DNA from: a virus
Lineage: Duplodnaviria; Heunggongvirae; Uroviricota; Caudoviricetes
Virus record (IMG/VR): IMGVR_UViG_2563366974_000010
DNA length: 64,000 nt
Reading direction: 5' to 3' (one strand)
This document shows, in pieces, positions 11,247-54,547 of the stretch (position 1 is the first letter of the stretch; each line of letters opens with the position of its first letter). The notes below the pieces were generated by a model. That model was not told the DNA's origin. It was given only the letters and a program-made list of their open reading frames with translations, and ran no database searches. Both the position numbers and the translations under genes were made by a program.

Positions 11247-11312
11247 AACGCATATATTTCATGTAAATATGATATCGTCGCCATAGCTTTGATTGTCGAC
11301 TGAATATAAAAA

Positions 11313-11334
11313 CCTCGCCACCGTGCGGGGTTTT
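11313..11334 (+). terminator. Intrinsic terminator (tR'-like) downstream of Q-like gene
   Basis: CCTCGC-caccgt-GCGGGG hairpin (one G-U) followed by TTTT. Confidence 0.5.
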
Positions 11335-11694: not shown

Positions 11695-11769
11695 GCCGGT
11701 CTAGTTCAGTGGCAGAACGGCAGCCTTGTAAGCTGCGCGTCAGAGGTTCGATTCCTTTGCCCGGCACCA
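11695..11769 (+). tRNA. tRNA-Thr (anticodon TGT)
   Basis: Manual cloverleaf: acceptor GCCGGTC/GCCCGGC (1 mismatch), D arm GTTC-AGTGGCA-GAAC, anticodon arm GCAGC-CTTGTAA-GCTGC, T arm AGAGG-TTCGATT-CCTTT, CCA end. Confidence 0.7.
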
Positions 11770-47055: not shown

Positions 47056-47620
47056 TATCGCGTCCTCAACAATGAATTTTGTGATGCGGTGCCTGGTGCT
47101 TCCAGGTGACGTTAACCAGTTAACAATTAACGCCGGATACAGAGAATCCACCCATAACACTGTTTTTGGTTTTAACTGTTCCGCGTGCGCTTAGCCGCAT
47201 TCACCGCATCACAAAATTCACTTTAAAAAGGGCGGCAGAGCAGTCACGGAGTAAAACTGATACCGCCAAACGTCACCAGAAAATTGATAACAGAGGGCGT
47301 TGCAGCGGGGTTGTCACTTAAGCGTATGGTCAACCTGACAACCCGGTGTCCTCAACGGTGGAAGGAATAACCCCGCCATACTTACCGCCGCGCCATTTCG
47401 CGGATTGCCACAACCGGAAGCGCACGGTCGACGAAAATTTAACGACAGGCTATCTATGAACCAGCTACCTCGCCGTGCGCTTTCGCGTTATGGTCTGACT
47501 TTTCAGGGAAATATCCTTTCAGTAAACTGTCAGTGCCGGATGCTCACCCGTGTCCGGCGCACGCACTCCACCTCACCCGTGGAGAACTCCTTAATTACCA
47601 ACCTTAGCTTCGTTGGTTAG

Positions 47621-52605: not shown

Positions 52606-53607
52606 ATGGATATTCGCACACGAAAGACAAAATTTTTAGAGTCGTTAGATTCAACTGAAGTGATACGCAAAGCAGTAAGTCTCGCTATAGATTGCATTAT
52701 TGATAATCATAATAGTAATGAAGATACCCCCTTAGTTATTACCAGCTATGATGATCTCTGTAGAATCCAGGTGCTAAATTATGTACAGGAGTTTTGCGAA
52801 GCTGCATTCCCTGATATGGATGAATATTACTTTAGTCCTAACATACTTCGCATCAACGGCAAGACTAGTGAAGAAGCTTGTATTAACTTAATTAAACTCT
52901 TAAGAAGTACAAAAGGCATGCTATTCTGGTCCGATGCCCCATCGTGGTTCGCTAGCCTCCCCGACGGATTATTCCATGTTGTTAACATTGATCAAAAAAT
53001 CGTTACTCGCGGCCTTAATAAGAAAAACTCTAAGCCGACAATAATCAATAAAGATTACAGTGTAGATACACTACTATCAGAGCTATTTTTGAATGGCGCA
53101 CACATGGAGCAACCCAACGTACACAACGTTTCTGAGGGAAACATGAAGTTCTATGATGAATGCCATGCTGGATTAATCAGACCAATACCCGCTCCAATAG
53201 GCGCGTCATACGATGAAGAGATCACAATTAATTCTCCAGATTGGCAAAAGCTCGCGTGTGTAGCTTTACGCCGCTATCAGTCGAAGGAATGTCATGACGG
53301 AATGCAATGGGATACAACCGATCATGGTTGGACTGATGTAATCGCGTATCCATTCGTCGAAGAAATACAATCAATGGATAATAGTGGTTATCGACAATGT
53401 TTAGTTGGGCTGGTCACAATAAACAATTCAAATGCAAATTCTCCGTACCTATCTACCGTTTGGATACATCCATTTTATCGCAGGAGAGGGTTATTAAGTA
53501 AGTTATGGCCAAAATTACAAGAGTTATATGGAAGTAACTTCGAAATTGAGCGACCTAATGAAAATATGAAAGCATTTCTGAAAAGTGCGAAACACGCAGA
53601 TTACTAA
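52606..53607 (+). CDS. Hypothetical protein (333 aa), AT-rich cassette gene 2; C-terminal GNAT-like segment
   Basis: C-terminal VWIHPFYRRRGLLSKLWPKL resembles acetyltransferase motif A; N-terminal 230 aa unassigned. Confidence 0.55.
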   Translation: MDIRTRKTKFLESLDSTEVIRKAVSLAIDCIIDNHNSNEDTPLVITSYDDLCRIQVLNYVQEFCEAAFPDMDEYYFSPNILRINGKTSEEACINLIKLLRSTKGMLFWSDAPSWFASLPDGLFHVVNIDQKIVTRGLNKKNSKPTIINKDYSVDTLLSELFLNGAHMEQPNVHNVSEGNMKFYDECHAGLIRPIPAPIGASYDEEITINSPDWQKLACVALRRYQSKECHDGMQWDTTDHGWTDVIAYPFVEEIQSMDNSGYRQCLVGLVTINNSNANSPYLSTVWIHPFYRRRGLLSKLWPKLQELYGSNFEIERPNENMKAFLKSAKHADY

Positions 53608-53923
53608 TTTATGAATCAGTCTGTGGAGTTAGGGTTGGTGTCAACAAGTAGGGTAAGAGCCTCAACGTGATGCTATGCCGACCTGCTCCCTGAGAATTCA
53701 CACAGAAGGCTGCTAGCAATGTCTGCAGATCGCTCAAAGCGGACTAGAAGGTTAGCTTGCGTCGGACTTGGCGTATTTAAAGAAGTGCTGGTGGTGACTG
53801 GTTGTTGTGTTCCATTTCTACAGAACAAAATCACAGAAACTATACCCAATAGTTATATTGAATCAATGATGAGACAGCCTCATATTTATCAGAACTGGTG
53901 TACGTCCAATACAGGAGGTTGTC

Positions 53924-54013
53924 GTGCTGGTTCTCAAATGTGCGCTAGCTATTGCGGCTGTAATGGCAATTTATTGTCTTGCTGTTGTTCTTATGGATCG
54001 CCTTTCTGATTGA
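53924..54013 (+). CDS. Candidate small hydrophobic peptide (29 aa)
   Basis: AGGAGG 5 nt upstream of GTG; peptide MLVLKCALAIAAVMAIYCLAVVLMDRLSD; not in ORF track. Confidence 0.2.
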   Translation: MLVLKCALAIAAVMAIYCLAVVLMDRLSD

Positions 54014-54224
54014 TTTTATATTGGCGAGGTGACGGGAGTTAAGTAGAATTGCTGCGGGTGCTTGAGGCTATCTGCCTCAGGCATGAACACCAAAGGCAGA
54101 TAGAGAAAAGCCCCAGTTAATATTACGCGTCCTGCAAGACGCTTAACATTAATCTGAGGCTCAATCTATGAACGGCAAATCTAGGTTAGCCTCTTACGTG
54201 CCGAAAGGCAAGGAGAAGCAGGCT

Positions 54225-54380
54225 ATGAAGCAGCAAAAGGCGATGTTAATCGCCCTGATCGTCATCTGTTTAACCGTCATAGTGACGGCACTGGTAACGA
54301 GGAAAGACCTCTGCGAGGTACGAATCCGAACCGGCCAGACGGAGGTCGCTGTCTTCACAGTTTACGAACCTGAGGAGTAA
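54225..54380 (+). CDS. hok: Hok/Gef-family type I toxin
   Basis: MKQQKAMLIALIVICLTVIVTALVTRKDLCEVRIRTGQTEVAVFTVYEPEE matches Hok family; in-frame upstream extension from 54168. Confidence 0.8.
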   Translation: MKQQKAMLIALIVICLTVIVTALVTRKDLCEVRIRTGQTEVAVFTVYEPEE

Positions 54381-54450
54381 GAGACCCGGCGAGGGAGAAA
54401 TCCCTCGCCACCTCTGATGTGTCAGGCATCCTCAACGCACCCGCACGTAA

Positions 54451-54475
54451 CCCGCTTCGGCGGGTTTTGTTTTTT
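54451..54475 (+). terminator. Intrinsic terminator after hok
   Basis: CCCGC-ttcg-GCGGG then TTTTGTTTTTT. Confidence 0.55.
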
Positions 54476-54547
54476 CCTGGCATTCTGGTTTACAATTCGC
54501 ACGCCAGCCTGAACAACTGGCACCTGCTGCGCCAGCAGAGACAACCG

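Follow-up and report, generated by a model that had tools for sequence, protein, structure and literature searches.

A probable small membrane-peptide gene beside a complete hok/mok/sok cassette in a UTI89-type lambdoid prophage of Escherichia coli

We analyzed a 64,000-nt stretch of Caudoviricetes DNA (IMG/VR record IMGVR_UViG_2563366974_000010; hereafter the window) around a Hok/Gef-type toxin gene and a 29-aa hydrophobic open reading frame (ORF) upstream of it, here named FamB. The best explanation of this locus, to which we give a probability of about 0.7, is a known hok/mok/sok cassette standing beside a separate membrane-peptide gene, FamB, that is not an antisense-controlled toxin. The region 54021-54476 is a complete canonical hok/mok/sok type I toxin-antitoxin cassette, already known and ordinary. 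FamB is very probably a real gene, judging from the conservation of its reading frame, and is placed by homology boundaries outside the cassette, on the phage side of a junction near 54028. Positions 53850-54480 of the window match E. coli UTI89 and many further extra-intestinal strains with 100% identity, and the locus lies within a UTI89-type lambdoid prophage.

The FamB ORF (53924-54013, plus strand) starts at a GTG codon and encodes (M)LVLKCALAIAAVMAIYCLAVVLMDRLSD, with a single transmembrane helix predicted at about residues 6-24 (grand average of hydropathy, GRAVY, 1.81; best 19-aa hydropathy window, 2.70, at residues 6-24). A Shine-Dalgarno sequence, AGGAGG (53913-53918, plus strand), ends 5 nt before the GTG, in agreement with the original prediction of a 29-aa hydrophobic peptide upstream of hok preceded by AGGAGG at good spacing. 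Counting both strands, AGGAGG occurs only 18 times in the 64-kb window. Half of these sites (9/18) are positioned 4-9 nt before the start codon of an ORF of at least 20 aa, and at least two of the remaining sites coincide with RefSeq-annotated genes.

Relatives of FamB were sought with degenerate DNA patterns, for example for the peptide VMAIYCL. This pattern matched 120 IMG/VR contigs, of which about 118 carry true homologues that keep both the 29-codon length and the GTG start. Variants always retain a GGAG/GGGG Shine-Dalgarno core at fixed spacing, and the neighbouring bases vary. A tally of variable sites among the haplotypes, made by hand with loci L094 and L107 left out, gives 15 at third codon positions against 6 at first and 7 at second positions, and the replacements are conservative (A/V/T, V/I, D/E/N, R/H). 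A diverged subtype in E. coli O157:H7 493/89 (locus L136) is a 34-aa ORF, MSDDILLAMEGALAVIAVVGVYCLVVFLMDRLGN, with an ATG start and an AAGGAGG Shine-Dalgarno sequence; it sits directly upstream of the hok promoter, as FamB does in the window. The 34-aa type is found in 121 further viral contigs, and a third lineage is represented by the 34-aa homologue of L107. Together, the 29-aa and 34-aa subtypes keep their length and Shine-Dalgarno sequence in about 240 viral contigs.

Comparison between subtypes in the ORF frame yields proportions of synonymous differences (pS) of 0.42-0.62 and of nonsynonymous differences (pN) of 0.14-0.31, with nonsynonymous-to-synonymous rate ratios (dN/dS) of 0.25-0.35. 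A control frame reverses the relation (pS 0.27 < pN 0.40). Many of the base differences are synonymous, and residues, frame and stop position are kept. The purifying selection, the diverged homologues and the rarity of AGGAGG bear out the earlier judgement that FamB is unlikely to be a chance ORF.

The closest annotated relative is WP_001278447.1, the 34-aa protein of O157:H7 493/89, which the NCBI pipeline names 'hypothetical protein'. It shares with FamB 15 of 29 residues, the same stop position, a strong Shine-Dalgarno sequence and the hydrophobic core ALA..AV...YCL.V.LMDRL. It differs in its ATG start, in place of the GTG of the window, and in five extra N-terminal residues (MSDDI).

The FamB region is present in 1,574 of 5,426 complete E. 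coli genomes (~29%). No annotated feature lies over FamB in UTI89 or in the 12 RefSeq records inspected, and FamB-type sequences that carry a public name are all called 'hypothetical protein'. Neither FamB nor FamA, a second small ORF family described below, has a family in Pfam, PHROGs or NCBIfam. An HMMER scan of 1.84 billion representative proteins with the 30-aa translation returned 9 near-identical clusters and no distant relatives, and a literature search with the peptide sequences and accession numbers gave no match. Among species-representative genomes, an AVMAIYCL-type ORF is confined to E. ruysiae, Shigella flexneri and three short contigs from metagenome bins. We assume that these contigs, labelled Collinsella, Scatousia and Haemophilus, are stray Escherichia phage DNA; this genome scan thus gives no evidence that FamB has spread beyond Escherichia/Shigella.

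Two other candidates at FamB were rejected. A 96-aa ORF in another frame (53719-54009) is broken by a 14-nt deletion in phage mEp460 and has an odd composition, and a promoter of FamB's own at 53830-53859 has a −10 element that is not kept (TGTATT in relatives). Imperfect 13-nt inverted repeats at 53855-53867 and 54009-54021 (85% complementary) lie on either side of the FamB ORF, at the minimal mosaic boundaries of its module. They may be due to chance, since they are not conserved in the 34-aa subtype.

Mosaic boundaries separate FamB from hok. Homology to most phages begins at 54036, and the boundaries of the hok cassette fall at about 54029-54036 on the left and about 54470 on the right. 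In boundary histograms from 125 loci, the left module runs from 53717/53730 to 54028 (from 53850-53890 in its minimal version), and the hok module has its right boundary at 54460-54479 in 67 loci. In seven contigs 53717-54028 is retained, and 54029-54501 has given way to about 1.3 kb of unrelated cargo. In these contigs (L042, L065, L069, L080, L095, L101 and L108) the 1.3-kb cargo carries a 120-aa ORF on the opposite strand. In L107, FamB and the first ~105 nt of the hok leader are still there, and next comes a gene whose N-terminus is cytosine-methyltransferase-like. In PPompW phages all that is left of FamB is its last bases, beside another cargo gene. The hok DNA is 94-98% identical between loci whose FamB proteins are only ~52% identical. 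FamB stands at a set distance upstream of the hok promoter in 90 of 118 matches of the 29-aa type, most of the others being too short to judge, and in 105 of 106 of the 34-aa type. Because hok is swapped while FamB stays, alleles are shuffled and boundaries cluster, the locus fits a phage-backbone gene, FamB, flanking a cargo slot usually filled by hok.

Upstream of FamB, positions 52606-53607 (plus strand) encode a 333-aa cargo protein (PHROG 16994) that has a weak GNAT-like match at its C-terminus. In the related phages Evi, Tritos and mEp460 the cargo at this position is different and mostly in the opposite orientation.

The elements of the hok cassette were mapped by sequence and homology, and the ends given below for the hok mRNA and for the antisense RNA Sok are inferred ones. 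The hok toxin gene (54225-54380, plus strand) encodes 51 aa and is annotated in RefSeq as hokD (WP_000813256.1), the only RefSeq annotation inside the locus coordinates. Its product matches Pfam PF01848 HOK_GEF over the full length of the profile (E = 2.6e-22) and PHROG 251, 'MokW-like host killing' (E = 2.8e-32), so the earlier assignment of this ORF to the Hok/Gef family is correct. The in-frame upstream leader noticed from 54168 is likewise present as a 70-aa mok-type reading frame (54168-54380, plus strand), with hok in frame and a stop codon common to both. This exact 70-aa sequence exists in public collections under the name Hok/Gef family, and its start falls within the stretch predicted to be complementary to Sok. 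A promoter scan places the candidate hok promoter at 54021-54049 (plus strand), with a −35 TTGGCG (54021-54026), a 17-nt spacer and a −10 TAGAAT (54044-54049); in alignments its −10 and start region are kept in Sp5-type and O157 493/89 loci.

The full-length hok mRNA would span 54056-54476 (plus strand, ~421 nt), and this sequence folds with a minimum free energy (MFE) of −175.4 kcal/mol (z = −8.06). In the MFE fold nucleotides 1-12, a 5′ tac-type element GGGUGCUUGAGG (54056-54067), pair with an fbi-type fold-back element CCUCAACGCACCC (54430-54442) complementary to the mRNA 5′ end. Such a tac/fbi fold-back is the defining trait of hok mRNAs. Among 201 cassettes in the fetched loci, tac is invariant (201/201) and fbi is kept in 185, varying only at a bulged base or in a way that preserves a wobble; the variation of neither element in these 201 cassettes offers covariation support for the pairing. 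An intrinsic terminator found by a terminator scan (54449-54476, plus strand) consists of AACCCGCTTCGGCGGGTT, a hairpin at 54449-54466, and a T-run to about 54476.

Between hok and fbi, 8 nt past the hok stop codon, starts the perfect 9-bp hairpin that the original prediction had noted after hok. It is GGCGAGGGA-GAAA-TCCCTCGCC (54388-54409, plus strand; arms 54388-54396 and 54401-54409), and it forms in the MFE fold. It is not the terminator, which is the element just described. One stem position is A-U in the window, G·U in O157 493/89 and apparently G-C in an Sp5-type locus (L131). These variants were read by eye from the alignment, and one arm in L131 also shifts register. The stem thus persists despite sequence change. 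By analogy with plasmid R1, the hairpin is probably a protective 3′ stem at which 3′ trimming stops, giving the activatable mRNA. A weak isrK-like Rfam match (54389-54470, plus strand; 27.8 bits against a gathering score of 50) spans the hok 3′ hairpin and the terminator, and probably reflects merely the common hairpin-plus-terminator shape.

Rfam family RF01794, 'sok', scores 113 bits at 54056-54230 on the plus strand (gathering score 59), starting 7 nt downstream of the hok promoter and extending as far as the hok AUG. This is the hok-sense strand; on the strand that carries Sok the model reaches just 19.9 bits, at another position. An Rfam 'sok' match is therefore no guide to which strand encodes Sok. 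In practice the model describes the hok leader, and Sok itself is on the other strand.

Homology now allows the Sok-like antisense RNA that had been expected to be located on the minus strand. Its putative promoter (54183-54211) has a −35 TTGCCT (54211-54206), a 17-nt spacer and a −10 TAACCT (54188-54183), and 186 of 201 cassettes have both hexamers. The RNA would start near 54176 and end with a hairpin and U-tract near 54105, giving a predicted transcript of ~71-73 nt (54104-54176) made of a short 5′ tail, a long hairpin and then GGGGCUUUUCU. The predicted fold (−34 kcal/mol, z = −6.55) leaves 7 nt of the 5′ tail unpaired. The assignment is consistent with oligonucleotides used on the hokW-sokW locus of Sakai prophage 5 (Sp5). 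The 30-nt oligonucleotide YO-597, which covers the Sok promoter region there (Takada et al. 2021, PMC8621323), matches the window at 54184-54213 without a mismatch (30/30). In the same work, primer YO-421, made for promoter-less sokW mutagenesis, changes the Sok promoter stretch, and the sokW probe YO-592 covers the Sp5 equivalent of 54104-54176 (PMC8621323).

A hypervariable 22-nt patch (54161-54182, plus strand) spans the mok start codon and the first four codons and is complementary to the Sok 5′ tail. It exists in at least eight common alleles in cassettes with otherwise near-identical flanks, and these alleles are shuffled between FamB subtypes and upstream contexts. From this pattern of variation, the patch is a probable specificity determinant of Sok, which would stop cross-talk between co-resident hok/sok copies.

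All annotated genes around the locus are on the plus strand. A Cro/CI-type regulator, a YdaT-like gene, a replication-type gene, DUF977 and two hypothetical genes precede hokD, and a hypothetical gene, DUF968, RusA and a Q-type antiterminator follow it. This gene order places the locus in the rightward early (nin-type) operon. FamB has the orientation of that operon and no conserved promoter of its own.

Other prophages carry a second small hydrophobic ORF family upstream of hok, FamA, of 27 aa (MTWPEAF...YSICRWR and variants; motif M.WP[ED]AF...VY.ICRW.). FamA ORFs lie at 2396-2479 in L131, at 1568-1651 in L136 and, on the minus strand, just upstream of FamB in L107. FamA lies ahead of FamB in L107 and the 493/89 type, and in the Sp5-type phage it is the ORF immediately before hokW. 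The FamA start codon, ATG, overlaps the stop of an upstream gene that differs between loci, and purifying selection is apparent (pS 0.55-0.69 versus pN 0.21-0.26). FamA has no annotation in L136. The insert of the published plasmid pBAD18-hokW-sokW starts at the FamA ATG (primer YO-432, PMC8621323). In 493/89, WP_001278447.1 follows a FamA ORF and is followed by a perfect 22-bp palindrome, CGATATGGGAATTCCCATATCG (L136 1800-1821), which is also found upstream of hok in PPompW and L107 and is absent from the window. Copies of an 11-nt direct repeat, GGGTAAAAACG (L136 1646-1656 and 1821-1831), flank the FamB ORF together with the palindrome. Deletion between these repeats would yield the FamA-hok arrangement of Sp5-type phages.

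The original prediction had also proposed that FamB could be a second small membrane toxin. That proposal is not supported: the ORF is outside the cassette and has neither a conserved antisense promoter nor unusual mRNA structure. In its full form, the proposal would make FamB the toxin of a second type I system, with an antisense RNA of its own as antitoxin. The small size and strong hydrophobicity of the peptide (GRAVY 1.81) fit such a toxin, as does the position of the ORF in an intergenic stretch adjoining a genuine type I system, and a weak minus-strand promoter-like site (TTAACT-18-TAAAAT, 54042-54013) reads antisense into it. However, the −10 of this site is TGAAAT in three of the four aligned phages (Evi, mEp460 and HannyBb) and the 34-aa subtype has nothing equivalent there, so the site was rejected; a promoter scan and alignments reveal no antisense promoter over FamB common to the subtypes. 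Folding of the FamB region is ordinary (z = −0.79, −1.21, −0.35 and +0.83 across two subtypes, versus −8.06 for the hok mRNA), the strong Shine-Dalgarno sequence is exposed rather than sequestered, no Rfam family matches over FamB, and the orientation is that of the early operon. We regard an antisense-controlled FamB toxin as very unlikely. The idea that FamB is a truncated Hok paralogue, raised by an 'AM..AL.VI' resemblance, likewise finds no support: FamB has no Pfam match even at E ≤ 10, and BLASTP of the 34-aa homologue against Hok returns no alignment. FamB (elsewhere FamA) might instead work with Hok in two- or three-peptide modules, as a co-toxin, a timing factor or a membrane antagonist. 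The distance of FamB upstream of the hok promoter is constant in three diverged lineages, FamA stands directly upstream of hokW in Sp5-type phage, and the helix has features that suggest packing. Yet PPompW and a Rac-type phage have hok cassettes without FamA or FamB, FamB persists where other cargo replaces hok, hok alleles are shuffled between FamB subtypes, and pBAD24-hokW is toxic by itself (PMC8621323). The near-identity of hok DNA between loci with strongly diverged FamB proteins also fits a cargo slot better than a co-evolving pair, and we find such a partnership unlikely.

We give equally little credence, as with the antisense-controlled toxin, to FamB being untranslated, its conservation reflecting a DNA or RNA role (an upstream element of the hok promoter, a recombination site) or recent divergence. 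The variable fraction within the UTI89-type group is 0.16 in the ORF and 0.24 just upstream, a modest difference that such a reading could accommodate, and RefSeq gives FamB no annotation. Against this, the differences between subtypes are largely synonymous with residues, frame and stop kept, the Shine-Dalgarno core is retained amid changing bases, and in the 34-aa subtype the start codon is ATG and the Shine-Dalgarno sequence AAGGAGG. The reading we prefer, a known cassette beside a separate membrane-peptide gene, has its own difficulties. All evidence for FamB as an expressed membrane peptide is comparative; within the closest subgroup, the window and HannyBb give a dN/dS of 0.85, from only 7 differences; and at least 90% of loci have hok, or what is left of it, next to FamB. 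Overproduction makes many small hydrophobic peptides toxic, and 'not a toxin' is meant here of regulatory architecture only.

Between the two best-sampled subtypes FamB keeps the small residues A7, A9, A12 and A15, as well as Y17-C18, L19, L23 and D25-R26. The small-residue face and the Tyr-Cys pair suggest helix-helix packing, with itself or with a membrane partner. With low confidence, we propose that FamB acts by such contact, from early-right transcripts, during lytic growth. It would be translated from rightward early transcripts via its strong Shine-Dalgarno sequence, giving a single-pass inner-membrane peptide made during lytic growth that would contact itself or a host or phage membrane protein. 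A more speculative picture, which we consider rather unlikely, is that prophage hok cassettes sit in an array with FamA/FamB peptides acting with or against Hok, for instance on the timing or strength of lysis, or that FamB itself damages membranes under phage early transcription.

The mechanism of plasmid R1 hok/sok, which is well established and is also given in PMC8621323, is the basis for the working proposed here for the window cassette. By likeness to R1 hok/sok and hokW-sokW, the full-length hok mRNA would be inert. Once its 3′ end had been trimmed as far as the 9-bp hairpin, fbi would be gone and the mRNA could refold, and the refolded mRNA would support mok-coupled translation of hok unless Sok paired with the mok start region. 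When Sok is lost or decays, as on prophage induction, Hok would enter the inner membrane and help to kill or lyse the cell. Loss of Sok could plausibly follow from sense transcription, driven by a phage early promoter, through the convergent Sok promoter.

Elsewhere in the window, Rfam matches above gathering score are DicF (47230-47281, minus strand), two copies of STnc100 (59076-59266 and 59544-59753, plus strand) downstream of a phage tRNA cluster, and an isrJ-like RNA (11262-11334, plus strand) that adjoins tRNA-Thr (11695-11769). ARAGORN reads the tRNA cluster (58751-59000, plus strand) as Met(CAT), Arg(TCG) and Arg(TCT). RefSeq labels the first of these tRNA-Ile, which would fit a lysidine-modified CAT anticodon.

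The hok/sok part of the locus is a clean, complete example of the ancestral K-12 hokD form and otherwise brings nothing new. As a small membrane-protein gene FamB is well supported; about 29% of complete E. coli genomes have it, among them those of well-studied uropathogenic strains such as UTI89, where it is unannotated. It adjoins a toxin locus that is cloned and deleted in experiments, and FamA is carried without comment on the published hokW-sokW expression clone. Work on prophage hok, lysis timing or small proteins should control for the FamA and FamB peptides.

Among known systems, hokW-sokW of Sp5 is a lambdoid-prophage hok cassette in the same genomic place as that of the window (PMC8621323). 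The window is ~94% identical to Sp5-like phage DNA over 54036-54444, and its Hok shares 47 of 51 residues (92%) with HokW. The two cassettes have the same tac and fbi elements and the exact match to YO-597. They differ at the Hok C-terminus (FTVYEPEE in the window, FVDYESEK in HokW) and in the 22-nt patch at the mok start, so that cross-recognition by the window and Sp5 Sok RNAs is doubtful. The Sp5-type sequence also diverges directly past fbi and lacks the terminator hairpin of the window, and upstream of hok it has the 27-aa FamA ORF in place of FamB. HokW is toxic, also when expressed alone from pBAD24, and is counteracted by sokW (Takada et al. 2021, PMC8621323). Induction with mitomycin C makes sokW disappear and brings HokW to the inner membrane; the phage yield is halved in the absence of the hokW-sokW locus, and the study shows a role in induced lysis (PMC8621323).

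The founding member of the family, hok/sok (parB) of plasmid R1, has the same architecture, with Hok, an overlapping mok, antisense Sok and a 5′-3′ fold-back. It resides on a plasmid, whereas the window cassette is on a prophage. A 16-nt insertion makes the window Sok hairpin longer than the Rfam consensus. Protein identity to R1 Hok is only moderate, at 44% for HokW, and the prophage relative is reported to help lysis upon induction rather than to maintain a plasmid (PMC8621323). In E. coli K-12, hokD (relF, Qin prophage) matches only positions 54211-54474 of the window, with 98.1% DNA identity. Its protein differs from the window Hok at one residue and has the same RefSeq name, and Qin has the same type of downstream genes (YdfU/DUF968). 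The K-12 copy lacks the promoter, tac, the Sok gene and the mok start, all of which are upstream of 54211, and has relBE there instead. The window cassette is the full-length, intact, self-regulated form of the truncated K-12 hokD/relF.

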